Virus record (IMG/VR): IMGVR_UViG_3300021091_000011
Length of the DNA: 64,000 nucleotides
Source of the DNA: a virus
Taxonomy: Duplodnaviria; Caudoviricetes
Direction: 5' to 3' (one strand)
Shown here: positions 8,836 through 28,368 of the stretch, one piece after another
How positions within the stretch are numbered: the stretch's first letter is position 1
Layout: every line of letters starts with the position of its first letter
Translations under genes and position numbers: made by a program
The notes under the pieces: generated by a model
What the model was told of the DNA's origin: nothing
Database searches by the model: none
The model's input: only the letters and a program-made list of their open reading frames with translations

Positions 8836-8839
8836 GACC

Positions 8840-12450: not shown

Positions 12451-12497
12451 CTACACCATCCAAACGGTCGGGCAGCGCAGGAAAAACCGAAAATCGA
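12451..12497 (-). promoter_or_regulatory. Bipartite promoter-like motif, copy 1 (upstream of the VWA gene)
   Basis: Reverse complement GATTTTCGGTTTTT-N14-CCGTTTGGATGGTGTAG. Confidence 0.75.
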
Positions 12498-12498
12498 C

Positions 12499-12783
12499 TC
12501 AAAAACCGAGCCGCTTCAAATCGGCGTTCATGTGACGCCCAAGCACCTGCGACTCGGCTGATAGATAGGTCTTGCCGTTCACGTCCGTCTTGACAACGGC
12601 GTTCGTCAGGACCTTGCCCGCCTTAATCCCACGCGCAAGCCGATTCGCCAACGCGCGCTTCGTGTGCGGCAACGTCCAGCCATAGACGTCGCTACGGTCA
12701 ACCAGCCCCTCGGGAGCCGTTACGCTCACCTGAAGCAATCCGTAGCCTTCTGTAATCGTCACGTCAAACATCGCTTGCTCCAT
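12499..12783 (-). CDS. Hypothetical protein
   Basis: MEQAMFDVTITEG...; directly downstream of motif copy 2. Confidence 0.65.
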   Translation of the reverse strand: MEQAMFDVTITEGYGLLQVSVTAPEGLVDRSDVYGWTLPHTKRALANRLARGIKAGKVLTNAVVKTDVNGKTYLSAESQVLGRHMNADLKRLGF

Positions 12784-12794
12784 ATTGATTGCGC

Positions 12795-12842
12795 TTACAC
12801 CATCCAAACGGTCAGGCACCGCCCGAAAAACCGAAAATCGAC
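12795..12842 (-). promoter_or_regulatory. Bipartite motif, copy 2
   Basis: TTACACCATCCAAACGG-N14-AAAAACCGAAAATCGA on the + strand. Confidence 0.75.
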
Positions 12843-12965
12843 ATTCGCTTTTTCGGTTTTTTCAGGACTCGCCAACCGTTTAGATCACCCACTATGTAAA
12901 AATCAGGCCCATGTGCGCGCACAACGGTTGATTGCCTCGCAGAAAACCGAAAATCGACATTCACT

Positions 12966-13009
12966 TTTTCGGTTTTCTGCGTTCGGGATAACCGTTTGGA
13001 TGGTGTAAG
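12966..13009 (+). promoter_or_regulatory. Bipartite motif, copy 3
   Basis: TTTTCGGTTTTC-N14-CCGTTTGGATGGTGTAAG, then the RBS AGGGAG and ATG at 13036. Confidence 0.75.
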
Positions 13010-13035
13010 CACAACACAACAAGGGAGTGACGAAC

Positions 13036-13323
13036 ATGACGATCCAAATCACGAAGATCAAGTCGAACGGTGATCACACAACTTCTACGCAGGAAGTTGC
13101 GAAGGGCGTGTCCCCGCTCGATGCGCTCGATTGGGACGACGCCCGCGACTTCCTTGAAGGGTACGTCGAGGTCATCGGCCTCCGCACGGACGGGTTCCGT
13201 CACAAGACGTGGATGATGGTCGACGAGGATGGGCTTCCGAAGGCCCTCGCCCCGAACCACACGGCCAGCGTCATCGCGGGTCGCCGGATCGTCGGCAACG
13301 CGATCTGGATCGAAGTAATCTGA
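13036..13323 (+). CDS. DUF3846-like phage protein
   Basis: LEGYVEVI...MMVDEDGLPKALAPNHTAS..AGRRIVGNAI matches my recollection of the DUF3846 signature. Confidence 0.65.
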   Translation: MTIQITKIKSNGDHTTSTQEVAKGVSPLDALDWDDARDFLEGYVEVIGLRTDGFRHKTWMMVDEDGLPKALAPNHTASVIAGRRIVGNAIWIEVI

Positions 13324-13325
13324 GT

Positions 13326-13373
13326 CGATTTTCGGTTTTCCCAAACCGAACCATCCGTTTGGATGGTGTAAGC
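13326..13373 (+). promoter_or_regulatory. Bipartite motif, copy 4
   Basis: GATTTTCGGTTTTC-N14-CCGTTTGGATGGTGTAAG. Confidence 0.75.
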
Positions 13374-13521
13374 AATCTCAAGGAGCAAAGCCATGGAGTG
13401 TCCGCGACAGGACCGAGAAAGCCGCCTACGTTCGGCCCATCTTGGTCACAGAAATCAAGTATTTGCAGGACATTCCGGCGCGCATTATCGCAGGTGAACT
13501 GCCCGGTTGGGAGGTCTGAAC

Positions 13522-13980
13522 ATGAACGCACGAATCGAAATCACCGACCTGACCACGCGCGCACGCACGGTCAAGACGGTCGAGAACGCGCCGGACTACC
13601 CGCCACCCGCCGAAGACTTCACGGCGGTTCTCTGGACCTACGACAACGGCACGCAATTCGTCTGCAAGGCAAACAGCGTGACGCCCGTGCCCGCGTCGGT
13701 CGATTGCCCGACCTGCGGCGCACCGCACCACGCGAATCAACATTGTTTCGAGTGCTGGTTCTGGGACGACGTCGCACAAGACGCCGACGTGTTCGTCGTC
13801 AACGGCAACGCCTATTGCATGGGGCCGGAGAACGCCACCATGAAGGGCATGGGCGGCACCAAGTATCGCGTCCGGTCGCTGCACGGCAAAACCGAACGGA
13901 CGACGACGAACCTCTGGCACCGAGGCAAAGTCCCGCCCTCGCACCAAACCCGACTGCCCAACAACGCCTACTTTGCTTAA
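13522..13980 (+). CDS. Hypothetical protein with a CxxC...CxxC motif
   Basis: GGAGG RBS; CPTCGAPHHANQHCFECWFW. Confidence 0.7.
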   Translation: MNARIEITDLTTRARTVKTVENAPDYPPPAEDFTAVLWTYDNGTQFVCKANSVTPVPASVDCPTCGAPHHANQHCFECWFWDDVAQDADVFVVNGNAYCMGPENATMKGMGGTKYRVRSLHGKTERTTTNLWHRGKVPPSHQTRLPNNAYFA

Positions 13981-14042
13981 GCGTTAACAACGCTATCAAA
14001 GCCCATGAGCAGCAATAACCTGATTTTTACAGGCATGGGCAC

Positions 14043-14699
14043 ATGAACAAGATTTCTTCTCAAGACCGAAGCGCGCTGATTAAATTAGCCGCAAGTCTGC
14101 CGCTCGGCTCTGCCGAGCGCAGGGTGATCCTCGCCGGAATCGGATACCGTTGGCTACCCGAGAACATTCGCGGGACATCGCCAAATGTCCCTTCTGAAAA
14201 CACGGACCTCGAAATCTGGACCTATGAAGTCGCCGGAAAGCCCTACGCCATCGCGTATCAGGGCAAGTCTAGCAAGCCGCTGTTTTACTCGTTGTTCCGA
14301 AGTGAAGAACAACGCCGGAACACGATTCAAAATGCAATCAATAGCCGCAAGTCGGCTATTGAAAGCAAAGCGTTGCGACGCAAAGAGCGTAGTGAGTATC
14401 AGCACACGCTCAAAGTGGGCGACATCCTCTACTCTAGTTGGGGATACGACCAAACCAACGTCGACTTCTACGAAGTCGTAGGCGTCAGCGGCAAAGCCGT
14501 CGCCATTCGTGAGATCGAACAGCGCGTGGTCGAAGGCAATGACTTTACAGAGAGGGTCGCCCCCATGCCGCGAAAGTATATCGGCCCCGTGCTAAAGAAA
14601 ATCCCGCGCGATAACTTCGTGCGCCTGAATAGTTTTTCAATTGCTCGGCTTTGGGACGGCAAGCCGAAGACGCAATCCGGCCCATACGGAGGCCACTAA
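14043..14699 (+). CDS. Leader-tagged protein with a common phage domain (SWGYDQTNVDFYEV)
   Basis: Starts MNKISSQDRSALIKLAASLPLGSAERRVILAG; C-terminal GDILYSSWGYDQTNVDFYEVV. Confidence 0.8.
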   Translation: MNKISSQDRSALIKLAASLPLGSAERRVILAGIGYRWLPENIRGTSPNVPSENTDLEIWTYEVAGKPYAIAYQGKSSKPLFYSLFRSEEQRRNTIQNAINSRKSAIESKALRRKERSEYQHTLKVGDILYSSWGYDQTNVDFYEVVGVSGKAVAIREIEQRVVEGNDFTERVAPMPRKYIGPVLKKIPRDNFVRLNSFSIARLWDGKPKTQSGPYGGH

Positions 14700-14748
14700 G
14701 TCCTTTTACTTAGCCTATCACGCCAACCGTAGGCAGGAGACCGATTAC

Positions 14749-15126
14749 ATGAACAAGATTTCTTCGCAAGACCGAAGCGCGCTGATCAAGTTGGCATCAA
14801 GTCTGCCCGCAGGCGACGAAACCCGTCGCGCGATTCTCGCAGGCTTGACCAAACTCGCCGCCCCCTACAAGCACGACAGCACCACCAGCGGTGGTAAGCG
14901 TTGCCGCAATCAATCCTGCGGCGGCGTCGGCGCACCGGGCAAAGGTTTATCCGAGTACGACCTGCTCGCAAACTACGGCGATCACGTCGGCACCGACCAC
15001 GATCCCCAAAAGAATATGGCGGGCTATATGCGTTGGTGGCGTGAAAACCAAGGTCAACACAAAGACCGCACCGTGAGCCCCACGGGTGCAGGCAACGAGA
15101 CTTTCAATCCTCAAAAGAAGAAGTAA
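14749..15126 (+). CDS. Leader-tagged small protein
   Basis: GCAGGAG RBS; MNKISSQDRSALIKLASSLPAGDETRRAILAGLTKLAA followed by an unrelated ~90-aa domain. Confidence 0.75.
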   Translation: MNKISSQDRSALIKLASSLPAGDETRRAILAGLTKLAAPYKHDSTTSGGKRCRNQSCGGVGAPGKGLSEYDLLANYGDHVGTDHDPQKNMAGYMRWWRENQGQHKDRTVSPTGAGNETFNPQKKK

Positions 15127-15269
15127 GTAAGTCTCCCCCCCTAGCCCTTAGAAAAGCCCTCTCGCTCGCGCAAGAGGGGCTTTTTTTATGCCCAAAAAGC
15201 GTATGATCACGCTATGCCTAGCAACACCGTCAGACTGATTCTCGGCGATAGCCTTGTCAAACTCAAAGA
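15061..15269. repeat. 209/210-bp direct repeat, copy 1
   Basis: Near-identical to 16599-16808; contains the 3' end of the 14749 gene, a terminator and the first 19 codons of the methyltransferase. Confidence 0.92.
15152..15187 (+). terminator. Rho-independent terminator
   Basis: AGCCCTCT-loop-AGAGGGGCT followed by T7. Confidence 0.8.
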
Positions 15270-15303
15270 TTTCTTAATCCGGCTATACCAATCTAACGCT
15301 TAG
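15214..15303 (+). pseudogene. Truncated start of the methyltransferase N-half
   Basis: MPSNTVRLILGDSLVKLKD is identical to the 16753 protein, then diverges and stops. Confidence 0.8.
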
Positions 15304-15325
15304 ATTATCTTGAAGGTGTATAGAC

Positions 15326-16441
15326 ATGAGCATGATTTCGCGGGTTGCGCAGAGATTCTTGCAGGCAGACGCAGTCAAAATTCATTGGTGGTTTCTTGAC
15401 GCGCATGAGGACCCGACCGTCAAACGTGCCGCAGAACGGCTATGGGGTTCCGTCGGTTCCGGGCTGGCTGAGATTGCCCCCATAAATGCGAGACTGCGGG
15501 CAATGAAACCCGAGGACGCGCACACGCCCAACGGTTTTCAGACGGTGCGCGCCGACGTGAGTCTCGTTACAAGTCCGCAAGTAGAGGGCGTCGCTTTGCA
15601 CTTGGATTTTTCTTTGGACGGCCGGACGGTCCTGTTCAACTCCAAGTTGAGAGTCAATCACCCGAAGTTTGCGGCTTTGCATGGTAAGAAAGCAACGCCG
15701 GCCAAGATTCTGTCAATTCTCTTTGCGGACTTCACGCAAAAGAAAGCCGAGTCCAATGCGTTTCAAGACGAACTCGACGCGGAATATGCACGGGTTCGGG
15801 CAAACTTTCAGACGCAAGCCGAGGACTTCGCCAAGTTTCTAGCCTTCCAGATTCCCACACTTCGGTCCAACGTCCCGGCGATTACCGGGAGTGTCAAGTC
15901 CGTCACGGCTTCCGAGAATGGCTTTTCGGTCGTGTCGGAGTTCAAGACCGCCACGGGCAAGCCTTATCAGATAGGGTGTGACGTCCGAAACGGAACGTTG
16001 CAAATCACACGTTCTGACGGTAAGCCCGGGTCTAAGTTCTCGATAGACTCCGGGGACACACGTTCAGTCGGCAACGCCGTCCATCATGTTTTGAGTGTGG
16101 CCCGTGGCATTGCCAGTAGTGAGAGTCAGGCGTCGGACAAGGTGACGGCTCTGATTCAAGCCACGCGGACGGAAAAGGGCGGGCGAAACCGTAAGGTTTC
16201 GTTTATTCCTGGGAAGACCCCGCGTTGGGACGTTCGACCGGACACGCCGAAGTCTTTGGACCATTACGGTCCTGACGGTTGGGACGAAGACGCGTGGACG
16301 GAAGAATACGCGGAGCCGATTGAGACGGCGGTGCTCGCCGAGTTAGACGCCGCTTTTGGACGCGGTATGTTCCACATCGACGTAGAAGAGAACGGTGATT
16401 TCACCGTTTACGCGACTCCGGCTGGTGCCCGACTGTTCTAG
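15326..16441 (+). CDS. Hypothetical protein with an N-terminal RVAQRFLQA tag, lying between the 209-bp direct repeats
   Basis: 371-aa ORF starting MSMISRVAQRFLQAD. Confidence 0.75.
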   Translation: MSMISRVAQRFLQADAVKIHWWFLDAHEDPTVKRAAERLWGSVGSGLAEIAPINARLRAMKPEDAHTPNGFQTVRADVSLVTSPQVEGVALHLDFSLDGRTVLFNSKLRVNHPKFAALHGKKATPAKILSILFADFTQKKAESNAFQDELDAEYARVRANFQTQAEDFAKFLAFQIPTLRSNVPAITGSVKSVTASENGFSVVSEFKTATGKPYQIGCDVRNGTLQITRSDGKPGSKFSIDSGDTRSVGNAVHHVLSVARGIASSESQASDKVTALIQATRTEKGGRNRKVSFIPGKTPRWDVRPDTPKSLDHYGPDGWDEDAWTEEYAEPIETAVLAELDAAFGRGMFHIDVEENGDFTVYATPAGARLF

Positions 16442-16598
16442 TCGACGAGCTTCTTGACGAGAGCCTCGATGCGGGCCGACAAATGGGTCCGCACGATTTC
16501 GTCCGTGGCCTTACGTCCCGAATCAAGAAATCCGTCGGGAGTATTTGAGACGAATCGAACGTCTTAATAACGCTCAGGCGGCGAGCGAGGCGGTCAAA

Positions 16599-16808
16599 AA
16601 AGACCGCACCGTGAGCCCCACGGGTGCAGGCAACGAGACTTTCAATCCTCAAAAGAAGAAGTAAGTAAGTCTCCCCCCCTAGCCCTTAGAAAAGCCCCTC
16701 TCGCTCGCGCAAGAGGGGCTTTTTTTATGCCCAAAAAGCGTATGATCACGCTATGCCTAGCAACACCGTTAGACTGATTCTCGGCGATAGCCTAGTCAAA
16801 CTCAAAGA
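16599..16808. repeat. 209/210-bp direct repeat, copy 2
   Basis: Matches 15061-15269 with a few substitutions and one extra C in the terminator stem. Confidence 0.92.
16689..16726 (+). terminator. Rho-independent terminator (duplicate)
   Basis: AGCCCCTCT-loop-AGAGGGGCT followed by a T-run. Confidence 0.8.
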
Positions 16809-17406
16809 CCTAGCGCCAAACTCAGTAGACGCCGTAGTTTCAGACCCACCCTATGAATTAACCGCTAACAAAAAAGGCGGCTCAGGGGTTGCCAGCATCA
16901 ATCTTGAAAGTCCATACGGACGTTCACGGATCGGAACGGGCAACGGCGGCGGCTTTATGGGTATGAAATGGGATTCGACCGGAATCGCCTTTTCACCCGA
17001 ACTTTGGGGCGAATGCTTTAGGATTCTAAAACCTAACGGCGTTATCAAAGCCTTTTCAGGCACGAGAACTTTTCACCGAATGACCCAAGCCCTGAAAAAA
17101 TCAGGATTCGTAGACTTTGAAATTCACGCTTGGACTTACGGCTCAGGCTTCCCGAAGTCTATGGACGTGAGCAAGCAGATCGACAAGGCGGCGGGCGCGG
17201 AGCGGGAAGTGGTGGGGCGTGTGGCAGGCATGGGTAAGCAAAACCCTGAATGGAACGGCACCGCACAAGGACGCGCTGAAAACTCGTTCAAGTCGGAATA
17301 TGATGCAACCGCACCCGCCACCGATGCCGCTCGGCAATGGTCCGGGTGGGGCACCGCTCTAAAGCCCGCTTGGGAACCAATCATCGTCGCAAGAAAGCCA
17401 ATATGA
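16753..17406 (+). CDS. N4/N6 DNA methyltransferase, N-terminal part (motif IV DPPY; no SAM-binding motif I)
   Basis: LILGDS, VDAVVSDPPY, FMGMKWD, ECFRILKPNG, WTYGSGFPKS, TALKPAWEPIIVARKPI. Confidence 0.88.
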   Translation: MPSNTVRLILGDSLVKLKDLAPNSVDAVVSDPPYELTANKKGGSGVASINLESPYGRSRIGTGNGGGFMGMKWDSTGIAFSPELWGECFRILKPNGVIKAFSGTRTFHRMTQALKKSGFVDFEIHAWTYGSGFPKSMDVSKQIDKAAGAEREVVGRVAGMGKQNPEWNGTAQGRAENSFKSEYDATAPATDAARQWSGWGTALKPAWEPIIVARKPI

Positions 17407-17489
17407 TCATCCACGTCTTGAGAAAGCCGTTGTCAGACACGGTCGCTCAAAACGCCTTGGCTCATGGAGCCGGAGCAAGGTGCCATTGA
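17403..17489 (+). pseudogene. Truncated copy of the methyltransferase second part
   Basis: MIIHVLRKPLSDTVAQNALAHGAGA, then interrupted at about 17478 by the inverted endonuclease remnant. Confidence 0.8.
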
Positions 17490-18074
17490 ATTCTAAAGCC
17501 GCCCCCATTTCAGGCAGGAAATAGTCTAGTACGGTCCCATAGCGACCATTTGGCCCCCGTAGATAATACTGATGTACGCAGGGCACACCTAGACGTTGAA
17601 GCACATCACCAACTTTCATTTCTAAGCCCGAGACGCGGGGTATACGGCCTTCCGCAATCGCCAAAGAAGTTGTCTGAGATAACTTGGCCTTGGTTTCTTC
17701 CGTGTGCTGATAGTTGCCCGCCGCCTTTCGGCGAACATTCATCTCACGTCGACGTTCGGCCTGCGCTTGTCGGGTAGCCTCTGGAATGATATAGGGCGTT
17801 TCTACTTTCCGACCTACCAAGCCCATCGAGCGAGCCTGATAGGAGCATTTGCGGGAGCATAAAAACGCCGTGGTCTTCGACCGAGCCACCACCGAAGGTG
17901 GTCTGGTTACAGGAGTGCCGCAAACTCCACAAGATTTTGCGATTGAGAGGGTGTTGCTCTGCCCCACAGGGCGTGAGAGCATTTACGAGAACAAGTCGTC
18001 TGCCGCCCATGTAATAAGCGGGTAGGGTCTGCTTGGTATAGGTCCCCGCAAACGGGGCAAAGTCGTTCAATCAC
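17478..18074 (-). pseudogene. Homing endonuclease remnant (Zn fingers + NUMOD3-like + Vsr/DUF559-like domain), frameshifted and truncated
   Basis: GTG at 18074 gives IERLCPVCGDLYQADPTRLLHGRQTTCSRKCS. A different frame carries CGVCG...FLCSRKCS, HTEETKAKLS and SGLEMKV...VLDYFLPEMGAALEFNGT, cut before the expected WH. Confidence 0.75.
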
Positions 18075-18123
18075 GAGGTCACCACCTATGACAAATGAGG
18101 GAAACGGTCGTAGGGAGGGTCAG

Positions 18124-18926
18124 ATGATTCGCTTGGTTTTAGGGGACTGCATCGAGAAAATGCAGGATATCCCCCCAGGAACCATTGATGCGATCATCAG
18201 CGACCCTCCCTACGGCTGAATATATCAGGACTAGAATTCATGGGGAAAGAATGGGACGCACCTTGGAAGTCAAACGGATGGCAAGCCGGAGGCGGGTTCT
18301 CTAAACCTGGTATTGGCGAACGCCATACCGCATGGCCTAGTTTCACCGCGACTTCTAAGTTCGGTGCCACAAATCCAACTTGTGAGACTTGTGGGGGACG
18401 TGCGCGAGGTAAAAAACGCTGCGGTTGCGCTGAACCACAATGGAAAGCCATCGGCAAACGCCGCCACGTCGAAAATGAAGGCTTACCGTCTGACGTTACG
18501 AGTTCAGGGATGAGTAATCACCTTCGCCACTTTCAAGATTGGTGCGAACTTTGGTCAAGCCAATGCTTTAGAATCCTAAAACCTAACGGCGTTATCAAAG
18601 CCTTTTCGGGGACACGAACTTTTCACCGTATGACCCAAGCCCTGAAAAAATCAGGATTCGTAGACTTTGAAATTCACGCTTGGACTTACGGATCAGGCTT
18701 CCCGAAGTCTATGGACGTGAGCAAGCAGATCGACAAGCAAGCGGGCGCAGAACGAACGGAAGTCATAAAGCCGTTCAATGACGAAAACGGTTGGAACGCG
18801 AACGGAACCACGGGCGACCACGCCTATACCGCACCCGCCACCGACGCCGCCCGTCAATGGTCCGGTTACGGCACCGCTCTAAAGCCCGCTTGGGAGCCGA
18901 TCATCGTCGCAAGAAAGCCAATATGA
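18124..18926 (+). CDS. Second methyltransferase N-terminal part, interrupted by a 14-nt insert just after DPPYG
   Basis: GGAGG RBS; MIRLVLGDCIEKMQDIPPGTIDAIISDPPYG, TGA at 18217; resumes LEFMGKEWD at 18231 and continues to ...EPIIVARKPI. Confidence 0.8.
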
Positions 18927-19381
18927 TCGTTCACGTCTTACGAAAGCCATTGTCAGGCACGGTCGCTCAAAACGCTTTGGCTCATGGAGCCGGAGCATTG
19001 AACATCGACGGATGCCGGATTGCTGTTTCTAGCGAAGAAAGAAAAACCTACGACGCCAATATGCGTGCGCTTGAACGGTACGCAGACGGCAGAGAAAAAA
19101 TCGGGCAGTTTGAGGGTGGCTGGAAAGCAGACCCGTCCCGTGTCAAAAACGTGGGCGCTCGCTGGCCCGCTAATCTCGTCCATGATGGAAGCGAGCACGC
19201 CCTAGATAATTTTCCCGAGGCGGGAAATGGATGGAAGAAAAATTACGGTGATGAAGTCTATGCCGTTGAAGGCCGTCATTATTCCGGAGGTTCTTTTGGC
19301 GGTGGTGGTTTTCTAGGGGGTAGCACTTATACGGACTCAGGCTCGGCATCTCGATTCTTTCAACAAGTGATAATCAAATGA
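18923..19381 (+). CDS. Methyltransferase second part, paralog A
   Basis: MIVHVLRKPLSGTVAQNALAHGAGALNIDGCRI...RWPANLVHDGS...GSASRFFQQV; ATGA overlap with the N-half. Confidence 0.8.
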   Translation: MIVHVLRKPLSGTVAQNALAHGAGALNIDGCRIAVSSEERKTYDANMRALERYADGREKIGQFEGGWKADPSRVKNVGARWPANLVHDGSEHALDNFPEAGNGWKKNYGDEVYAVEGRHYSGGSFGGGGFLGGSTYTDSGSASRFFQQVIIK

Positions 19382-19806
19382 TCGTTCACGTCCTGAGAAA
19401 GCCATTGTCAGGCACCGTCGCTCAAAACGCCCTGCAACACGGCTGCGGGGCATTGAACATCGACGGATGCAGGGTTAGTTTGTCTTCCGATGAAAATCCA
19501 GACAAGTTGAGCGCGAGAAGCGGTGGGAACCGTGGTTTTGCTGAAGATTATGTAGGCGGGGTAACACGAAATTTACCTGCTGGTTGGGATTGCAGCAAGG
19601 GGCGTTGGCCCGCGAATCTCGTCCATGATGGAAGCGACGAAGTTGTAGAGACGTTTCCTGAGAGCAACCGCTGGTTCAACGCACCGAGAAATAGCGATGG
19701 AAAAGGCAAAGACGGCCAGATTTTTGATACTCACCGTGGCAGCGGGATGGGTGGCGGCGACTCCGGTTCGGCATCTCGATTCTTTCAGCAAGTAACCCTC
19801 AAATAG
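19378..19806 (+). CDS. Methyltransferase second part, paralog B
   Basis: Same conserved blocks as paralog A with different variable segments; ATGA overlap. Confidence 0.8.
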   Translation: MIVHVLRKPLSGTVAQNALQHGCGALNIDGCRVSLSSDENPDKLSARSGGNRGFAEDYVGGVTRNLPAGWDCSKGRWPANLVHDGSDEVVETFPESNRWFNAPRNSDGKGKDGQIFDTHRGSGMGGGDSGSASRFFQQVTLK

Positions 19807-21348: not shown

Positions 21349-21575
21349 GGGCTTCTCCCACCGTCACCTTCGGACTGCTCATCACCGTAACCGCGTCCGT
21401 CACCGTAGCCACGTCCGTCACCGTAACCGTGGCCGTAGTCTTTTGTGCTCAACTCAAAGGCCGTGGTCAACGGGATTCGCGCCAACGGCTTGCCCTTGGC
21501 ATCGGTCAGGCTGATCGTCCCGTCGGGATTAGGCTTGAGGTTAGTCGCGGACTGAAACGGATGTGGTAGGTTCAT
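21345..21575 (-). CDS. LPxPF-domain paralog with a Gly-rich tail
   Basis: MNLPHPFQSATNLKPNPDG...TAFEL plus (GYGDGR)n. Confidence 0.8.
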   Translation of the reverse strand: MNLPHPFQSATNLKPNPDGTISLTDAKGKPLARIPLTTAFELSTKDYGHGYGDGRGYGDGRGYGDEQSEGDGGRSP

Positions 21576-21925
21576 TTGGGAACCTTGCCTCCGGAGCCGT
21601 TGCCGATTCCAAATGGGTCGTATCCGGCACCTGAGTTGCCATCAGCGAAGCGGCATTTAGCACCTAAAGCGTCGCTGTAGCCGTAGTTCAGCGAAGCGAA
21701 CAAAATGCCGCCGCCGAAAGGCATGATTTCAGATATGTTGGTCTTGTCGAGTAGCGAGTAGGCCGTGTTCAACGGCACGCGGGCAATCGGGAGGTCATTT
21801 TCGGTGGTCAGGTCGATTGTCCCATCGGCGTTTACGCGAATCCAGCGCACGTCTTGAAACGGACGTGGCAACGGCGACCGACTATGTGCAGGGTAGTGGA
21901 CGTTGTCTGAGATGTAACCGTTCAT
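21572..21925 (-). CDS. Divergent LPxPF-domain paralog
   Basis: SPLPRPFQDVRWIRVNADGTIDLTTENDLPIARVPLNTAYSL. Confidence 0.75.
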   Translation of the reverse strand: MNGYISDNVHYPAHSRSPLPRPFQDVRWIRVNADGTIDLTTENDLPIARVPLNTAYSLLDKTNISEIMPFGGGILFASLNYGYSDALGAKCRFADGNSGAGYDPFGIGNGSGGKVPK

Positions 21926-22248
21926 GGGGACTTGCCTTTGCCGCTTATGTAGCCTTGGCCGTAAGCGACTCCGATTCCGAATCCTTCGCCGTAGCCGATT
22001 CCGAATCCATCACCCGAACCGTCTCCGTGATCTTTGCCGTAAGTGCCGTAACCGAAATCTCCATCGCCGCTGCCATCGTTGCTTGGCTTGAAGTCGCACT
22101 CATCCTTGTCACCGAGCGGCGACAACTCAAAAGCCGTGGGCATCGAGATTCTTGCGAGCGGCTTCCCGCTCGCGTCGATTAGGTCGATTGAGCCGTCGAG
22201 ATTAGGTTTGAGACCCGTCGCGGACTGAAACGGTGGGGGCAGTTTCAC
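21922..22248 (-). CDS. LPxPF-domain paralog with a Gly/Asp-rich tail
   Basis: MKLPPPFQSATGLKPNLDG...TAFEL plus GSGDGDFGYG repeats. Confidence 0.8.
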   Translation of the reverse strand: MKLPPPFQSATGLKPNLDGSIDLIDASGKPLARISMPTAFELSPLGDKDECDFKPSNDGSGDGDFGYGTYGKDHGDGSGDGFGIGYGEGFGIGVAYGQGYISGKGKSP

Positions 22249-22604
22249 GGGCTTCTCCCATTAGCCCTATGGGAACGCTTGCCGTAACCGTCACCGTCAC
22301 CGTGACCGTCACCGTAACAACCGATACCGCGACCGTGACCGTCACCGCGACCGTTGCCGCGACCGTCACCGTAACAACCGTAGCCGTAACCGTCACCGTA
22401 GCCGAGGCCGTAACCGTCGCTGTAGCCGAGGCCGTAACCGTGACCGTCACCGGAACCGTAGCCTGCGGCCTCGGGACTTAGATCAAAAGCCGTGGTCAAC
22501 GGGATTCGCGCCAACGGCTTGCCCTTGGCATCGGTCAGGCTAACCGTCCCGTCGGCATTGGGCTTGATGCTAGATGCGTCTTGGAACGGATGGGGCAGTT
22601 TCAC
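22245..22604 (-). CDS. LPxPF-domain paralog with a long GYGDG tail
   Basis: GTG start at 22604 after AGGAG: MKLPHPFQDASSIKPNADG...TAFDL plus (GYG/GDG)n. Confidence 0.8.
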   Translation of the reverse strand: MKLPHPFQDASSIKPNADGTVSLTDAKGKPLARIPLTTAFDLSPEAAGYGSGDGHGYGLGYSDGYGLGYGDGYGYGCYGDGRGNGRGDGHGRGIGCYGDGHGDGDGYGKRSHRANGRSP

Positions 22605-22621
22605 GGAGTTCAGTCTCCTGA

Positions 22622-23098
22622 TCAATCATCAATGTCTTCGGAGATGTCGAATGCCTCGATGATCTCGTCAGGCAGGTCTCCGTGTGAGGTCACGGTATAC
22701 TGTTGGTCCTCGCCGTGCCCAAAGATTCCGGCGAAAGCCATGCCAGGTTCATAGTAGAGCCCTCTGACGTCGAAACCGAGCTTGATTAGGTGTTGGTAGA
22801 ACGCGATTGGGGGCGACCAGGCCGTGAAAAACTTAGCCGTAATCTCTCCGTGGACGGAGGCAGTCACGGAACCCTCATCTATGTCCCATTTCGTGCCCCA
22901 ATTGTCACAGCACCAATCATAACTGTCCCTAGCACCGTACTTAGCGAGGTTTTGCTCGGCAGACTGACCCTCCAATTCAGGGGGGCATGGCAGGAACTCG
23001 TGGAACAGTTCGTTGCGACTTAGGGCTTTCTCGGCGCGGGTTAGTTCGTCCACGGACTCGTGCTTCAGCGTCAGGTGGTTCATACACCAATTGGGCAT
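22622..23098 (-). CDS. DUF1281/YubB ferredoxin-like phage protein
   Basis: MPNWCMNHL...YDWCCDNWGTKWD...FFTAWSPP...YYEPGMAFAG. Confidence 0.8.
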   Translation of the reverse strand: MPNWCMNHLTLKHESVDELTRAEKALSRNELFHEFLPCPPELEGQSAEQNLAKYGARDSYDWCCDNWGTKWDIDEGSVTASVHGEITAKFFTAWSPPIAFYQHLIKLGFDVRGLYYEPGMAFAGIFGHGEDQQYTVTSHGDLPDEIIEAFDISEDIDD

Positions 23099-23149
23099 GG
23101 TCTAACTCTTCTTTCTATGGGCTGATCTTGGTTGTCACAAACACTCGGG

Positions 23150-23587
23150 CTATCTGTCGAGGCCAGGTTCGAGTGGGGCAAATTCACGTTCTCCCCCCAC
23201 CGTCAACGTCACCGTAACCGACACCGGAACCACCGGAACCACCGTGACAGTCGCCGTAACCGTCGCCCTTCTCCCACCGTCACCGTTGGGCAGCCCGTCA
23301 CCGTAACAACCGTAGCCGTAACCGTCACCGTAGCCGAGGCCGTAACCGTAGCCGTAGCTGTCGCTGTAACCGTCGCCGTCGCCGTCGCCGGAACCGTCGC
23401 CGCAACCGTAGTCGGAACCGTAGCCGTAACCGTAGCCTGCGGCCTCGGGACTTAGCTCAAAGGCCGTGGTCAACGGGATTCGCGCCAACGGCTTGCCCTT
23501 GGCATCGGTCAGGCTAACCGTCCCGTCGGCATCGGGCTTGAGGCCCGTCGCCGCTCGAAACGGATGAGGGAGGTTTAGGCGTCCCAC
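23150..23587 (-). CDS. LPxPF-domain paralog whose 3' end is a frameshifted fusion
   Basis: LNLPHPFRAATGLKPDADG...TAFEL plus a GYG tail; after GDGGR the frame reads Val/Thr while the Gly-rich reading continues in another frame. Confidence 0.65.
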   Translation of the reverse strand: MGRLNLPHPFRAATGLKPDADGTVSLTDAKGKPLARIPLTTAFELSPEAAGYGYGYGSDYGCGDGSGDGDGDGYSDSYGYGYGLGYGDGYGYGCYGDGLPNGDGGRRATVTATVTVVPVVPVSVTVTLTVGGEREFAPLEPGLDR

Positions 23588-23907
23588 AAGCCGGACTCCC
23601 ACGCCGCCGCCGCTTGAGGCGTGCAAGCCAGCAGCCCCGTTATGTCCGTGTATTGCGCCATAGGCGCGGGAGGCGAAATCCTCGACCCCTGCAAAGGCCC
23701 CGTGTACGCAAGGCCGACGAACCCCCGCACTTCGGCGGGCCAATAGACCACCACTCTGCAGTCCTTGAGCGTGATGGTCGACGGGTTCTTGGTCGTGGTC
23801 CCGTCCGGACTCACGACCTCAGTAGCGAGGTTGTACGAGACAACCTCACCGAAGAAAACGCCGCGATGGGCGGTCGTGACGACGACCTTCTGACCGACAA
23901 AGTTCAT
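23575..23907 (-). CDS. DUF6948-like protein
   Basis: GQKVVVTTAHRGVFFG...ITLKDCRVVVYW...GFVGLAYTGP...SRIS...LLACTPQAAAAW. Confidence 0.7.
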   Translation of the reverse strand: MNFVGQKVVVTTAHRGVFFGEVVSYNLATEVVSPDGTTTKNPSTITLKDCRVVVYWPAEVRGFVGLAYTGPLQGSRISPPAPMAQYTDITGLLACTPQAAAAWESGLWDA

Positions 23908-23928
23908 TTGCTACTCCTGCTACGAATT

Positions 23929-24159
23929 TCAAGTTCCTTCGACGTAACCTTGCTTGGTCAGGTCATCGATCCAAGCGCCGAAAATCGCGCGAGTGACCGA
24001 ACCGTAAAGCGGCTGACCATCCGACCAGCCTGCGGCCTCGACCGTGTGGTTCTCACCTGCGACGGGCATCACCACGCCTCGCCATGACTTTCGATACTCG
24101 CAAGTCACGAGAACGGCCAAGACCTTCCCATGAAGTGCGATATGTGCGACGTGCTTCAT
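23929..24159 (-). CDS. Hypothetical protein
   Basis: GGAG RBS; first gene after motif copy 5. Confidence 0.65.
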   Translation of the reverse strand: MKHVAHIALHGKVLAVLVTCEYRKSWRGVVMPVAGENHTVEAAGWSDGQPLYGSVTRAIFGAWIDDLTKQGYVEGT

Positions 24160-24184
24160 TAGTTTGACTCCTTAATTTCACCGC

Positions 24185-24230
24185 TCACACTATTCAAACG
24201 GTCGGGCATCGCAGCGAAAACCGAAAATCG
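24185..24230 (-). promoter_or_regulatory. Bipartite motif, copy 5 (variant GAATAGTGTG)
   Basis: CACACTATTCAAACGG-N14-GAAAACCGAAAATCG on the + strand. Confidence 0.7.
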
Positions 24231-24422
24231 TCAACAGCACTCCAAACATTCGTCGTTTTCGTGCTCGGTGCGTCGTCCGCATTCATAGCAGTAGGCGTAG
24301 TAGTAGCCCTCGTCGTTCGCACCACGGTCGCTTTCTTCGATGGGGACCGTCTCCCAAGCGTAGACGCGCTCATTTGACTTGGTGCCAGCGTAGGGATCAC
24401 AAGGCTTAGTGCGTGTGGACAT
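24231..24422 (-). CDS. Small Cys-rich protein
   Basis: MSTRTKPCDP...YCYECGRRTEHENDECLECC. Confidence 0.6.
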   Translation of the reverse strand: MSTRTKPCDPYAGTKSNERVYAWETVPIEESDRGANDEGYYYAYCYECGRRTEHENDECLECC

Positions 24423-24442
24423 CTTTGATTTCCTCTGTGTGT

Positions 24443-25111
24443 TTAGCAGCAGGACTCGTGGTAGCAACCGGAAGCCTTGCCCGGCGGGTCGTAGACCATA
24501 TCGCTCCCGCTATGGATAGGCTCATGGCATCCGGCGCAAATCACGTCGAACGGCGCACGCACCGTCGGCAACAGCACCCGCTCAGGCTTCAACGGCTCAG
24601 GCTCAGGCTTCGACACACCCGCATTCGGCGACCATCGCGCCGCCATGTTCTGAAGCTCGGCAAGCGCGGCGTTCCGGCACTCGTGTCGCAAAGGGCATCC
24701 GTCGCACGTCTTGGCCTTGTGTGACCACCCGCCGAAACACGGCGTCATGTTCATCGCCACCCGCGCGAAGTACGCATCGCCGCCGTAACCCTCGCCCTCG
24801 CCCAAAGCGCGAGCCTCGGGCAAAAGGGGCAAGACCGTCCGCGTCGGCTCCACCACCACCGCTGGCGCGGGCTCCGCGATCACTTCGGCCTGCTTCTCAG
24901 CGGCGTCGCCGTTCAGGACCTCGTACCTCGTCCGCGCATTACGCCCCCGATCAGGGAACGTCACCGCGCCCGCGTTCTTAAGATCGTTCAGCGCCGACTT
25001 GAGCGTTGGCTCGTCCATCGGGACGGCGAGATTCGCCACGATCTCGTCCCAAGAGCAATAACCCGAACCGTTTGCCGCACACGCGGCTTTGATTGCATTG
25101 ACAATGTTCAT
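24443..25111 (-). CDS. Hypothetical protein: wHTH-like N-terminus and two Cys clusters
   Basis: LKSALNDLKNAGAV; CFGGW...TCDGCPLRHEC; CAGCHEPI...CYHESCC. Confidence 0.7.
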   Translation of the reverse strand: MNIVNAIKAACAANGSGYCSWDEIVANLAVPMDEPTLKSALNDLKNAGAVTFPDRGRNARTRYEVLNGDAAEKQAEVIAEPAPAVVVEPTRTVLPLLPEARALGEGEGYGGDAYFARVAMNMTPCFGGWSHKAKTCDGCPLRHECRNAALAELQNMAARWSPNAGVSKPEPEPLKPERVLLPTVRAPFDVICAGCHEPIHSGSDMVYDPPGKASGCYHESCC

Positions 25112-25132
25112 GTTGCACTCCCTTTTTGATTG

Positions 25133-25172
25133 CTTACACCATCCAAACGGTCAGTCAGCCCCGAAAAAACCG
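25133..25172 (-). promoter_or_regulatory. Bipartite motif, copy 6
   Basis: CTTACACCATCCAAACGG-N14-AAAAACCGA on the + strand (distal half partly degenerate). Confidence 0.65.
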
Positions 25173-25176
25173 ATTT

Positions 25177-25449
25177 TCAGGACTGAAAGTTCGTCGGAGC
25201 CTGCCGCCCCAAGCCCAAATCGACCTCACGCGGGTCGTCCAGCGTCGGACAGCCGTTCAGGAACGACCGATAACGGTCGCATTGGTACGCGACTCGTCCG
25301 GGCGTGTTGCAGATCTCCACCTTGCGCCACGTCTTGAGCGGCGCACCGCGAAAGGCCGAAGCCTCGAACGTCTCGACCGTCTTCGCAGTCGAGTAGTCCG
25401 CAGCCTCCGGCGCTCCGGTGAAAACCACAACCGTCACGAAACTCTCCAT
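25177..25449 (-). CDS. Hypothetical protein
   Basis: CAGGAG RBS; MESFVTVVVFTG... Confidence 0.65.
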   Translation of the reverse strand: MESFVTVVVFTGAPEAADYSTAKTVETFEASAFRGAPLKTWRKVEICNTPGRVAYQCDRYRSFLNGCPTLDDPREVDLGLGRQAPTNFQS

Positions 25450-25467
25450 GCTCACGCTCCTGAAAGT

Positions 25468-25588
25468 AGGGTCAAACAGATTGTGCGCTTTTAGGCCCCG
25501 TAGGAAGTCTCGGGTAGCCTCACCGAAACCGACTGACAAGCCCGAAGGCCCGCTCCTACGCGGCTAGAAACGCACAATCTGTCAAAGA
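25468..25588 (-). ncRNA. Putative structured RNA, copy 1 (unknown family)
   Basis: Terminal arms ACAGATTGTGCGCTTTTAG / CTAGAAACGCACAATCTGT; inner stem CGTAGGA/TCCTACG; UUCG-capped hairpin on the minus strand. Confidence 0.5.
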
Positions 25589-25590
25589 TG

Positions 25591-25712
25591 AGGGTCAAAC
25601 AGATTGTGCGCTTTTAGGCCCTAAAGGAAAGTCTCGGGTAGCCTCACCGAAACCGACTGACAAGCCCGAAGGCCCGCTCCTATACGGCTAGAAACGCACA
25701 ATCTGTCAAAGA
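25591..25712 (-). ncRNA. Putative structured RNA, copy 2
   Basis: Tandem near-copy with compensatory changes in the inner stem (TAAAGGA/TCCTATA); begins just downstream of motif copy 7. Confidence 0.5.
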
Positions 25713-25720
25713 AACCGTCG

Positions 25721-25766
25721 CTTACACCATCCAAACGGTTTCGAACCGTCAGGAAAACCGAAAATC
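25721..25766 (-). promoter_or_regulatory. Bipartite motif, copy 7
   Basis: CTTACACCATCCAAACGG-N14-GAAAACCGAAAATC on the + strand. Confidence 0.75.
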
Positions 25767-26196
25767 AACCGCGACCATCGCAAATCGGCCCAAGCCCCGA
25801 CTCAAGCGACTCCGGATGCGTGAGCTTCCGGCCACACTTGCCACACTTGCCGTCGTGCCACACTTCAAGGCCCTCGGGGATCGTCCCCGCCGCGATGCGC
25901 TCCCACGCCCAAGCGAAAGCCTTGTGACTCGGAGCGTCCGCACCGATCTTCGACTTCGCCGTGCGAATGAACCCACCGTTGGCCCCGATCAGGCCCATGT
26001 ACGCATAGGACGCCTCGTTGTCAGGACCGTTCAGGACCTTGACGAACCGAACCTTGCCGCCGTCCTTCGGCTCCTGCACCTTGAAGGTGAAGTGACGGCC
26101 CGTGGCCGTGCTCTTGAAAGTCACCGTGGCGTTGCCGCCAAGGATGAAAGCAGCGGCGTGGTCGGCGTTCTGGATCGGGCGGGCGTTCGCGTTCAT
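25765..26196 (-). CDS. DUF6011-like protein
   Basis: ATG at 26196 after GGAG: FILGGNATVTFKS..TGRHFTFKV...FVKVLNGPDNE...WHDGKCGKCGRKLTHPESLESGLGPIC. Confidence 0.8.
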   Translation of the reverse strand: MNANARPIQNADHAAAFILGGNATVTFKSTATGRHFTFKVQEPKDGGKVRFVKVLNGPDNEASYAYMGLIGANGGFIRTAKSKIGADAPSHKAFAWAWERIAAGTIPEGLEVWHDGKCGKCGRKLTHPESLESGLGPICDGRG

Positions 26197-26227
26197 GTTC
26201 GGTGCTCCTAGTTTGCTTGGTTCGTCG

Positions 26228-26327
26228 CTTACACCATCCAAACGGTCGCAGGACGCCCGAAAAACCGAAAAAGTGACGTCGATTTTCGGTTTTCTTAGCC
26301 CGAAGCAACCGTTTGGATGGTGTAAGC
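26228..26327. promoter_or_regulatory. Back-to-back divergent pair of the bipartite motif (copies 8 and 9)
   Basis: CTTACACCATCCAAACGG-N14-AAAAACCGAAAAAGTGACGTCGATTTTCGGTTTTC-N14-CCGTTTGGATGGTGTAAG. Confidence 0.75.
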
Positions 26328-26356
26328 GCAAGAAACCACTTTCTAGGGAGCCTTCG

Positions 26357-26494
26357 ATGAAGTTCCGCGACAACAAGATTGCCACCGCCCGCACCGAGGC
26401 GGGAATCGTGCGATCCAAGGCGGCTCGCAAGGCCGCGATCCGCGCGGTACGCCGCGCACGCATCCTCTTCATCGAGGATAGCGCGAAGAACTGA
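26357..26494 (+). CDS. 45-aa basic peptide, copy 1
   Basis: GGGAG RBS; MKFRDNKIATARTEAGIVRSKAARKAAIRAVRRARILFIEDSAKN. Confidence 0.7.
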   Translation: MKFRDNKIATARTEAGIVRSKAARKAAIRAVRRARILFIEDSAKN

Positions 26495-26495
26495 T

Positions 26496-26542
26496 GATTT
26501 TCGGTTTTCCAAGCGGCCCCGAACCGTTTGGATGGTGTAAGC
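26496..26542 (+). promoter_or_regulatory. Bipartite motif, copy 10
   Basis: GATTTTCGGTTTTC-N14-CCGTTTGGATGGTGTAAG. Confidence 0.75.
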
Positions 26543-26571
26543 GCAAGAAACCACTTTATAGGAGACTTTCG

Positions 26572-26709
26572 ATGAAGTTCCGCGACAACAAGATTGCCAC
26601 CGCCCGCACCGAGGCGGGAATCGTGCGGTCCAAGGCGGCTCGCAAGGCCGCGATCCGCGCGGTACGCCGCGCACGCAGCCTCTTCATCGAGGATAGCGCG
26701 AAGAACTGA
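26572..26709 (+). CDS. 45-aa basic peptide, copy 2
   Basis: AGGAG RBS; identical to copy 1 except one I-to-S change. Confidence 0.7.
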   Translation: MKFRDNKIATARTEAGIVRSKAARKAAIRAVRRARSLFIEDSAKN

Positions 26710-26755
26710 GATTTTCGGTTTTCCAAGCGGCCCCGAACCGTTTGGATGGTGTAAC
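26710..26755 (+). promoter_or_regulatory. Bipartite motif, copy 11
   Basis: GATTTTCGGTTTTC-N14-CCGTTTGGATGGTGTAAC. Confidence 0.75.
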
Positions 26756-26784
26756 CACAACTTGAAACCTTGCAGGAGTAGAAC

Positions 26785-27153
26785 ATGAAATTCGTCAACC
26801 TCACGCCCCACGATATCGTGCTCGCGTCCGGCGAGAACAACGCCAAGCGCATGACGATCCCCGCGAGCGGGATCGTCGCGCGAGTCTCAAGCACGCCCGG
26901 CGCGGCTGAGACAATCGACGGCGTGCCCGTCCCCGTGATGGGCCGTCAAACTTGGGGCAGCGTCGAAGGTCTCCCCGACCCCGTGCCCAACACACTCTAC
27001 ATCGTCAGCGGGGTCGTTCTCGCTCGACCCGAGTGCCAAAGCCGTATGGACGTCGTTGGCCCGGGCACCGGACCCAACGACAACGCCATTCGATACACCG
27101 ACGGTCCCCGAAAGGGGCAGGTCGAAGCGGTCACCCGACTCGTTCGCGGTTGA
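26785..27153 (+). CDS. Conserved hypothetical phage protein (NLTPH family)
   Basis: MKFVNLTPHDI...SGIVARV...VEGLPDP...LYIVS...R.DVVGP. Confidence 0.75.
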   Translation: MKFVNLTPHDIVLASGENNAKRMTIPASGIVARVSSTPGAAETIDGVPVPVMGRQTWGSVEGLPDPVPNTLYIVSGVVLARPECQSRMDVVGPGTGPNDNAIRYTDGPRKGQVEAVTRLVRG

Positions 27154-27200
27154 CGATTTTCGGTTTTCCAAGCGGCCCCAAACCGTTTGGATGGTGTAAC
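27154..27200 (+). promoter_or_regulatory. Bipartite motif, copy 12
   Basis: GATTTTCGGTTTTC-N14-CCGTTTGGATGGTGTAAC. Confidence 0.75.
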
Positions 27201-27230
27201 CCTAACTTGAAACATTCCTTGCAGGAGTAG

Positions 27231-28313
27231 ATGAACATGAACGCGATCCCCAACGAAGTGCTCGAAGCGTGGCAGAACCGCCCGATCAAGACCCGCCGCC
27301 CCGCCCCCCGACTCGTCGATCTCACCGTTGAGATTGGCGACGTCGAAGTGCCCGTCGATACGGGCATCACGGCGAGCGATTGCTTGCCTATGCCCGAAGG
27401 CTACAAGTTCCCCACTAAGGGTGCGGCCAAGAAGTGTACCGAGCGCGCAATCCACGCGCTCGTGAAGGGCCGAAACGCCTTCATTCACGGGATGCCGGGC
27501 ACGGGCAAGGACGCAATCGTCCACGCCTTCAGCGCCATGACCCGCAAGCCCGTGCTCATGGTCACTTTCCGGCCCGGGACCGATCTCGCACCTTGGTTCT
27601 ATATGCGGTCATACACGGCGGGCGAAACCGGATGGCGCTACGGCGCACTCTGGAACGCACTCACCGAGGGCGTTATGGGCACCGACGGTAAGCCCCGCGC
27701 ACCGCTGATCCTGCTCTCCGACGTTGACCGCGCCGATAGCGCGCAAGCAGAGTGGTTCCGAATCTTGACGGACAGCATTTCGGGCCGGATTCTCGGACCC
27801 GATGGACGCATGGTGCCGATCTTCCCCGGTACGCAGTTTGTCTGCACCGCCAACTCCTGCGGCACGGGCGATAGCCGTGGCCGCATGACCAGCGCAAACC
27901 CCATCGACGCCTCCATCATGGACCGCTTGGGCCGCGCAATCGAGTTCACCTACCTGCATTGGGACGACGAGGTTCAGGTCCTCCGCGAGAAGTTCCCGCT
28001 TCTCGTCGAAAAGGCCCCCGACGTGTTCACGCAGTTGCAGGGGTGCTGCGAGGCACTTCGCAAGGCAATCAAGAACGAGGAAATCTACGGCGAGTTCACG
28101 CACCGTGGCATCTGCGACGTGCTGGCCGAAGCCCAAGACCGACTCGAAATTACGGGCAAGAGCGACAAACTGCTTCAAACAGGCTTCATGGCTTGGCTCC
28201 ACCGACTCGACGCCGATAACCGACTCGCCGCAAAGCGACTCATCGACCCCTTTATGAAGGGTGGCGCAATCGCCGACGACATTGGTGAGGCCGAATCCAC
28301 CGAATCCCCCTAA
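27231..28313 (+). CDS. MoxR/CobS-like AAA+ ATPase
   Basis: Walker A GMPGTGKD; Walker B-like ILLSDVDR; VCTANSCG; DASIMDRL. Confidence 0.85.
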   Translation: MNMNAIPNEVLEAWQNRPIKTRRPAPRLVDLTVEIGDVEVPVDTGITASDCLPMPEGYKFPTKGAAKKCTERAIHALVKGRNAFIHGMPGTGKDAIVHAFSAMTRKPVLMVTFRPGTDLAPWFYMRSYTAGETGWRYGALWNALTEGVMGTDGKPRAPLILLSDVDRADSAQAEWFRILTDSISGRILGPDGRMVPIFPGTQFVCTANSCGTGDSRGRMTSANPIDASIMDRLGRAIEFTYLHWDDEVQVLREKFPLLVEKAPDVFTQLQGCCEALRKAIKNEEIYGEFTHRGICDVLAEAQDRLEITGKSDKLLQTGFMAWLHRLDADNRLAAKRLIDPFMKGGAIADDIGEAESTESP

Positions 28314-28320
28314 AAAGCGC

Positions 28321-28368
28321 CGATTTTCGGTTTTCCTAGACCGAACCAACCGTCTGAATAGTGTAAGC
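28321..28368 (+). promoter_or_regulatory. Bipartite motif, copy 13 (variant CCGTCTGAATAGTGTAAG)
   Basis: GATTTTCGGTTTTC-N14-CCGTCTGAATAGTGTAAG. Confidence 0.7.

Follow-up and report, generated by a model that had tools for sequence, protein, structure and literature searches.

The DNA described here is a 64,000-nt stretch of the IMG/VR virus record IMGVR_UViG_3300021091_000011 (Duplodnaviria; Caudoviricetes), and by ‘the window’ we mean this stretch at its full length. Its source is an uncultured huge phage. Its DNA polymerase and that of LR745208.1, a metagenomic phage of 485 kb, are 49% identical, proteins of the window itself are found on a 204-kb contig, and a 47-kb relative is rated 11% complete. 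The DNA of the window occurs in lake-water metagenomes, and for two stretches that were looked up the sequencing runs were all of lake-water DNA and none of RNA; a search for near-identical phage records found none. Between 10.2 and 29.2 kb lies a block of genes built around copies of one repeated two-box motif, which we take, from its sequence and setting, to be a promoter. The block consists of single small genes, each with its own copy of the motif, and of two convergent operons, one running rightward from 13.4 to 20.6 kb and the other leftward from 24.2 to 20.6 kb. Behind the copies stand genes for ORFans, for an AAA_5 and a VWA protein, and for DNA methyltransferase modules.

The two-box pattern, searched with up to three mismatches, matches the window 13 times and 100 shuffled versions of it not once. 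Seven copies are on the plus strand and six on the minus strand. Twelve are exact; the other, at 25137(-), has AAA where the rest have TTT. The boxes are separated by the same N14 gap in all 13. The conserved unit is longer than the motif first noticed: it comprises tcga, TTTTCGGTTTTY, 14 variable bases and CCGTYTGRATRGTGTAAGC, 45 nt in all (tcgaTTTTCGGTTTTY-N14-CCGTYTGRATRGTGTAAGC). The upstream box has CGGTTTT as its core, and the three T that lead this box can be replaced by A. Taken as a whole, the upstream element is a tandem TCGRTTT heptamer (TCGATTT ahead of CGGTTTT), while the downstream box, ACCGTYTG, runs on into the conserved stretch RATRGTGTAAGC. The CGGT of the upstream box is complementary to the ACCG of the downstream box. 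The downstream box is never seen alone in the window, being always paired with the upstream one; the upstream box stands without an intact partner at two further sites, 12850(+) and 12943(-), each with a decayed downstream box at the correct distance. A search of the literature, as far as it is searchable, gave no match to the motif strings. All copies are listed in Table 1, together with other features of the window.

Table 1. Motif copies and other features of the window (positions in nt from its first letter)
Feature	Position	Strand	Remarks
Candidate reader, 386-aa protein	4125..5285	+	ECF-sigma-like sigma2-sigma4 core (~residues 105-312); C-terminal MarR-type winged helix (314-386)
Putative promoter copy 1	12449..12493	-	precedes 728-aa VWA/CobT-like gene 10236-12422
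Putative promoter copy 2	12793..12837	-	precedes 90-aa ORF 12499-12771; back to back with decayed copy at 12850
Decayed copy	12850..12889	+	upstream box intact; downstream box is CCGTTTAGATCACC
Decayed copy	12914..12953	-	intact upstream box and degenerate downstream box; forms a back-to-back pair with copy 3
Putative promoter copy 3	12966..13010	+	precedes 95-aa ORF 13036-13323; collinearity with L094/L095 stops here (window 13009)
Putative promoter copy 4	13329..13373	+	heads rightward operon 13393/13522 to ~20630, DNA methyltransferase modules included
Putative promoter copy 5	24183..24227	-	variant GAATAGTGTGAGC; heads leftward operon 24159 to ~20623
Putative promoter copy 6	25132..25176	-	variant AAATCGGTTTT; precedes 222-aa ORF 24443-25111
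Putative promoter copy 7	25720..25764	-	enters tandem non-coding unit (~25468-25712), then ORF 25177-25449
Putative promoter copy 8	26227..26271	-	precedes 143-aa DUF6011 ORF 25765-26196; paired back to back with copy 9, boxes 11 nt apart
Putative promoter copy 9	26283..26327	+	precedes 45-aa ORF 26357-26494
Putative promoter copy 10	26498..26542	+	precedes duplicate 45-aa ORF 26572-26709; spacer shared with copies 11 and 12, not 9
Putative promoter copy 11	26712..26756	+	precedes 122-aa ORF 26785-27153
Putative promoter copy 12	27157..27201	+	precedes 360-aa AAA_5 (CobS/MoxR-like) gene 27231-28313
Putative promoter copy 13	28324..28368	+	variant CCGTCTGAATAGTG; precedes 123-aa ORF 28404-28775
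Strong terminator-like hairpin, then T run	29172..29200	+	likely right-hand limit of motif-driven block
Giant ORFs	29809-39654; 39703-45012	+	3281 aa; 1769 aa; no match in Pfam, PHROGs or PDB sequences

Every one of the 13 copies is oriented toward a downstream gene on the same strand, and in 11 of them a GGAG-type ribosome site and an ATG follow 24-40 nt past the GTG of the motif. The two exceptions are the copy at 25725(-), which leads into a non-coding tandem RNA-like region, and that at 13329(+), where the first open reading frame (ORF) has just 34 codons. Counted over the family of relatives described below, both a ribosome site and a start codon are present within 110 nt in 88 of 94 copies. 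About half of the family's copies form back-to-back pairs in which 11-12 nt separate the upstream boxes; the paired copies are the sole intergenic DNA and therefore the only DNA available for starting both divergent genes. On this sequence evidence the motif is a promoter. The original prediction, made from the letters of the window, had placed the copies to within 0-4 nt of the positions given here, at times taking in flanking cga or TAA, and had their strands right; it had also claimed an exact 14-nt spacer of varying sequence and, close downstream of nearly every copy, a start codon with a visible ribosome site. These descriptions are borne out by the counts above and, for the spacer, by the relatives as well.

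The RNA-like region comprises two tandem ORF-free units of ~120 nt (25468-25712, minus strand) directly behind copy 7. An Rfam search of it gave no match. The same unit occurs in three relatives (L010, L011 and L021), each time behind its own copy of the motif. The partial DNA methyltransferase modules of the rightward operon are repeated at 16753-19381 (+), and further paralogous copies are present in another relative (L001, 2458-8474).

Relatives were sought in virus and metagenome collections with exact boxes and with the gap left free at 8-24 nt, which yielded 4 virus and 25 metagenome stretches. The collections gave 81 further copies, 94 in all with the 13 of the window; the total covers the window and 30 related contigs from lake metagenomes and viruses. 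The gap, counted as 15 (Y plus N14), is the same in 93 of the 94 and one base longer in the remaining copy. The spacers themselves are free to vary, with 80 distinct ones, and positions that lay beyond the search pattern (T41, A42, A43 and A26) are 88-99% conserved; the downstream block from A26 to C45 is contiguous over 20 nt. A scan of 185,579 species genomes returned a single match, with the wrong gap, in the unrelated bacterium Shiella aurantiaca, which we take to be due to chance. The motif represents a promoter class that is undescribed, real and strongly constrained, and that belongs to a lineage of huge phages. The moraphages (PMC12619734) are a different lineage.

In the shortest leaders, found in one conserved gene family and in others, AAGGAGG occupies motif positions 42-48 and the ATG lies 6-9 nt further on. 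Since the ribosome site starts at position 42-44 in such cases, the 5' end of the transcript should be at or before about position 44, and we infer that transcription starts at about position 40-45. A start near 41 would put CGGTTTT at -36 to -30, the variable stretch at -29 to -16 and ACCGTYTG at -15 to -8. With the start so placed, the motif has the two boxes, ~35 and ~10 nt before the start and a fixed gap apart, that characterize promoters of the sigma-70 family; the geometry would be that of an alternative sigma factor of this family, and the letters are not those of host sigma-70. A scan with a TTGACA-N17-TATAAT-like consensus picks up none of the 13 copies, and the column table has T30 or T31 where the A at -11 of a housekeeping promoter should stand. 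Sigma-70-type sites are not enriched between 12 and 30 kb (4 observed, 6.2 expected). The earlier view that this is not a canonical sigma-70 promoter therefore stands. Its companion claim, that the -35 position falls inside the variable spacer, does not: by the short leaders CGGTTTT would lie at -36 to -30, and the 14 nt would be an ordinary, uncontacted spacer.

Among known promoter classes, two come near to the motif. Extracytoplasmic function (ECF) sigma factors read GGAAC-N16/17-CGTT or CGTC, and the -10 element of RpoE/AlgU is TCTGA. The window motif can be read as GGTTT-N17-CGT(T/C), one variant copy reading GTCTGA, and so shares with ECF promoters both the spacing and the CGT core; unlike them it has no AAC in its -35 box, and its conservation extends much further. 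The Pseudomonas sigma-28 promoter has TCTAAAG at -36 to -30 and GCCGATAA at -15 to -8 (PMC12784957). Promoters of this sigma-28 (FliA) class have the same 14-nt gap as the window motif, and RCCG opens the -10 box in both. They differ from it in that the window -35 box is CGGTTTT, and the window -10 box continues with TYTG rather than ATAA, so that the flipped A at -11 is a T. The window motif has in addition conserved blocks that sigma-28 promoters lack: TCGATTT upstream, and a downstream block that reaches +4. No site of the form CTAAA-N15-GCCGATA with the correct gap occurs in the window, and the resemblance to sigma-28 is thus one of geometry and RCCG. Other readings were tried and rejected. 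Sigma-54 promoters (TGGCACG-N4-TTGC) have GG and GC exactly 10 nt apart, with the start ~12 nt past GC; in the motif the GG-GC distance is one base short, G34 varies to A, and a start 12 nt after GC would fall past the ribosome site of the short-leader copies. Readings of the Bacteroidota type (-33/-7) and of the MotA type were ruled out because the spacing or the sequence did not fit.

The best candidate in the window for a protein that reads the motif is the product of the gene at 4125-5285, which would be a divergent sigma factor. It has eight homologues, the gene being in every case divergent from a 380-aa gene that lies beside a RecD2-type helicase. The C-terminus is a MarR-type winged helix (structural match, Z 11.8). 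In the full-length model of the protein, only this winged helix was matched. Within residues ~105-312, word patterns resembling sigma regions 2 and 4 are visible in the alignment, and when this core was modelled alone (predicted local distance difference test score, pLDDT, 63) its best structural matches were ECF sigma factors, namely SigH, SigL and SigE of Mycobacterium tuberculosis (Z 7.4-7.7); sigma2 aligned over 81 residues at 3.0 A, and sigma4 over 60 residues at 2.6 A, with a Z of 5.5 for region 4. About 40 of the top 50 Foldseek rows obtained with the core are sigma chains, at E of 0.2 or worse. The Pfam and NCBIfam sigma models, those of the ECF family included, matched none of the eight homologues at E up to 1-10, and a profile of the protein searched against PDB sequences returned nothing. 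The homologue encoded by LR745208.1 corresponds to the core and has no winged helix (hhalign 95.8%, E 7.5e-9). Neither phage has its own motif upstream of its sigma-like gene, and the 12-kb locus L032, one of those with sigma homologues of 43-48% identity, has no cassette region and no motif. The protein encoded at 2809-3969, which the original prediction had proposed as a second possible reader, offers only a weak lead as to a sigma-like nature, and shows no similarity to the 4125-5285 protein.

Several features lie close to these genes. Upstream of the sigma-like gene, at 4060-4100 (+), is a conserved direct repeat, GACnCCGTC ... GACCCGTCC, which contains CCGTCTAA and is kept in the relative L094 and partly in L032. 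A second motif, TTAATC-N3-CTATAC, occurs at 4001-4015 (-), before the 2809-3969 gene, and at 15274-15288 (+), before the ORF at 15326; even a relative of 43% identity has kept the GCCTATA part ahead of its 2809 homologue, and the motif is possibly another promoter class. An intein containing a LAGLIDADG domain splits a DnaB-type helicase of the window (56722-59484, plus strand), and in some relatives the RecD2 helicase bears an intein too.

The window's motif is absent from LR745208.1, but counts of words over the 485 kb of this phage revealed a repeat of its own, cGATTtc.CTAAAAa, ~10 variable bases and CcCGTgCCGATAGGGt, then GAGGA and ATG. There are 56 copies, and the spacing is fixed in 46 of 51; at least 52 putative promoters, mostly between 1 and 160 kb (loci L034-L058), match the flagellar sigma-28 consensus. 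CTAAA-N15-RCCGATA occurs 48 times in this genome and never in its reversed sequence; judged by their letters, the boxes are the sigma-28 consensus at its exact spacing. These putative promoters also carry an extra CGATTTC box upstream, and GGGT and GAGGA downstream. When the two motifs are aligned on the distal box that they share, CGATTT, RCCG stands 28 nt away in both, and the chief differences are confined to the two boxes that a sigma factor would contact. An alternative alignment, on CGT...GAT.G.GTA, is about equally good and moves the upstream boxes 5 nt relative to each other. When virus contigs were scanned for the features common to both motif types, the two known lineages aside, only single matches came up, and these are probably due to chance. 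LR745208.1 has no detectable homologue of a beta subunit of RNA polymerase, in a search whose control worked; neither a canonical sigma region 2 nor a canonical sigma gene was detected in it, and a search with PF00940 gave no match, the control being likewise silent.

Judged by comparison of sequences, the copies of the motif are also junctions at which cassettes are exchanged between relatives. Two relatives, L094 and L095, are 82% identical to, and collinear with, positions 1-13009 of the window, and 13009 is the final base of promoter 3. Past this point they hold three other promoter-gene cassettes, among them that of the 45-aa gene located at 26.3 kb in the window, and they rejoin the window at 13401, just beyond promoter 4. 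The proposal that cassettes are shuffled at the motif, to be examined by comparing cassette order among relatives, is upheld by these junctions. Gene families driven by the motif turn up in differing neighbourhoods across contigs. Ends of BLAST segments fall inside promoters in 34 of 90 cases (38%; 4.7% expected), a figure that is weak alone, since conserved promoters anchor alignments. The two near-identical 45-aa genes in the window have different promoter spacers, and the spacer of the second is common to two unrelated neighbours. A leader, ACTTGAAAC(ATT)CCTTGCAGGAGTAG, is shared by three unrelated genes (window 26756-26784, 27201-27230 and 28368-28403) and occurs likewise in the relative L007; the region of translation start may thus be part of what moves.

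This arrangement recalls the PeSL (promoter-early stem-loop) cassettes of T4-type phages, in which a terminator stem-loop is joined to a sigma-70 early promoter (PMC2839356, PMC4122927). In both, repeated and near-identical promoters stand before small variable genes in plastic regions and serve as points of homologous exchange; in both, relatives differ by whole promoter-gene cassettes, and the copies mark the junctions of insertions, deletions and replacements. They differ in that the window copies have no excess of hairpins upstream and are not sigma-70-like in sequence, and in that half of the copies in the window's family are arranged back to back as fixed divergent modules. Folding of the 36 nt upstream is no better than that of shuffled sequences (-6.75 and -6.44 kcal/mol, respectively; p 0.29), with no terminator stem, and for this reason we rejected classification of the motif as a composite terminator-promoter of the PeSL kind.

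Our preferred explanation, to which we assign a probability of about 0.6, is that the motif is a phage-specific promoter with alternative-sigma geometry, read by host core polymerase together with a divergent phage sigma factor, and that its copies double as patches of homology. The -35 box would be CGGTTTT, with a second heptamer, TCGATTT, ahead of it; a 14-nt uncontacted spacer would separate it from the -10 box, ACCGTYTG, and RATRGTGTAAGC would hold the start. A divergent sigma factor encoded by the phage would direct the host core RNA polymerase to the motif, and each small accessory gene or short operon between 10.2 and 29.2 kb would be served by its own copy. Promoter-plus-gene cassettes would be gained, lost, duplicated and moved at the boxes because these, being nearly identical, act as homology patches. 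Phage sigma factors with their own promoter classes are known from SPO1 (gp28 and gp33/34), T4 (gp55) and phiEco32/7-11 (gp36) (PMC4331800), and from group 2 jumbo phages (PMC7824862). As in those systems, host core would be redirected to a private promoter, and no polymerase of its own was detected in the phage. Theirs, in contrast, are middle or late and mostly without a -35 box, whereas the window's class covers accessory, early-looking genes, its promoter has two or three boxes and its candidate sigma factor carries an added winged helix. A combination of host core and phage sigma is what we favour, and we infer which protein this is and when it acts. The original suggestion of an alternative or phage-specified sigma factor survives as the most economical reading, and a sigma-like appearance of the 4125-5285 protein is borne out; which factor is the reader, and the label ‘early’, are the presumptive parts of it.

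Several observations tell against this explanation. The -35 box is without the AAC typical of ECF promoters, and the start of the transcript is deduced from leaders. The sigma assignment is weakly scored (Foldseek E of at least 0.2, Z below 8, Pfam and NCBIfam sigma models silent), and nothing links the 4125-5285 protein itself to this motif. The two alignments of the window and LR745208.1 motifs, 5 nt apart, are mutually incompatible. And if the genes in question are expressed first, the explanation must suppose that a phage sigma factor is injected along with the DNA.

The motif might instead be read by a sigma factor of the host, either its housekeeping sigma, were the host an unusual one, or an alternative sigma, with the T-rich upstream box acting in the manner of an UP element; the copies would then be true early promoters, independent of any phage protein. 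Phages without a polymerase of their own normally begin with host holoenzyme, the genes driven are typical early ones (ORFans and methyltransferases), and the boxes of LR745208.1 fit a host-type sigma-28 consensus (PMC12784957). We nonetheless consider this unlikely: no register yields a TATAAT-like -10 box (A at -11, T at -7) with the ribosome site inside the transcript, ribosome-site usage points to a host with ordinary promoters, the only match among the species genomes had the wrong gap, and the boxes differ between two related phages yet are invariant inside each lineage. A phage RNA polymerase, possibly carried in the virion, could also be the reader, taking the 20-nt downstream block as a T7-like or N4-like promoter to which the upstream box is accessory. 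This block is contiguous and has about the length of a T7-type promoter, pairing between spacer and box is stronger than with shuffled spacers (-5.05 versus -3.35 kcal/mol), a 9-bp hairpin is possible in ~20% of copies, and two giant, unannotated ORFs (3281 and 1769 aa) adjoin the block. Against it, most copies lack the hairpin, searches of the giant ORFs against Pfam, PHROGs and PDB sequences showed no sign of a polymerase, no beta-subunit match was obtained in LR745208.1, an obligatory upstream box sits exactly at -35, and the sigma-28 consensus of LR745208.1 requires a sigma factor; the odds seem to us poor.

About as improbable is the idea that a phage activator or repressor has its operator in the upstream box, or in the 5-bp inverted repeat CGGTT...AACCG, and switches a weak core promoter, comparable to MotA/AsiA at T4 middle promoters. 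The tandem TCGRTTT heptamer would suit such a protein, as would the pairs of boxes two helical turns apart in divergent modules and the extra MarR-type winged helix of the 4125-5285 protein. There is, though, no recognizable sigma-70 -10 element for an activator to assist, and the strict co-occurrence and spacing of the boxes suit a single reader with two DNA-binding domains. Least probable of all, and very improbable in our estimation, is that the motif is no promoter but a site acting in RNA or DNA, such as one for processing, termination or recombination. Some copies abut the stop codon of the preceding gene (TGA-GTCGA-TTTT), and homology junctions do fall at the motif; yet its orientation toward genes is strict, the divergent pairs leave promoters no other place, and the upstream hairpin excess that a terminator might display was not found (-6.75 versus -6.44 kcal/mol).

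The preferred explanation, a private promoter read by a phage sigma factor, can be extended to both phages, tentatively and with more doubt than belief. Huge lake phages may possess a private sigma/promoter pair of sigma-28-type descent, of which LR745208.1 would keep the consensus. The window's lineage would have re-specified both boxes (CTAAA to GGTTT, and GATAG to GTYTG) together with the sigma factor, which would have gained a third DNA-binding domain, a winged helix that possibly reads the extra TCGATTT box. If this is true, the sigma/promoter pair would be a natural orthogonal expression system, in which the promoter doubles as a recombination handle for the accessory genome; and if the sigma factor is packaged and injected, the first phage genes would never need a host sigma factor.

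Hardly anything is known of how uncultured huge phages programme their transcription, and this programme is defined precisely enough for testing without a cultured host. The 45-nt promoter, the candidate gene for a sigma factor and a sister pair whose boxes differ are ready for in vitro or reporter work, and may furnish orthogonal sigma/promoter parts. A lineage far from T4, it appears, also uses repeated promoters as the joints of an accessory genome built from cassettes.

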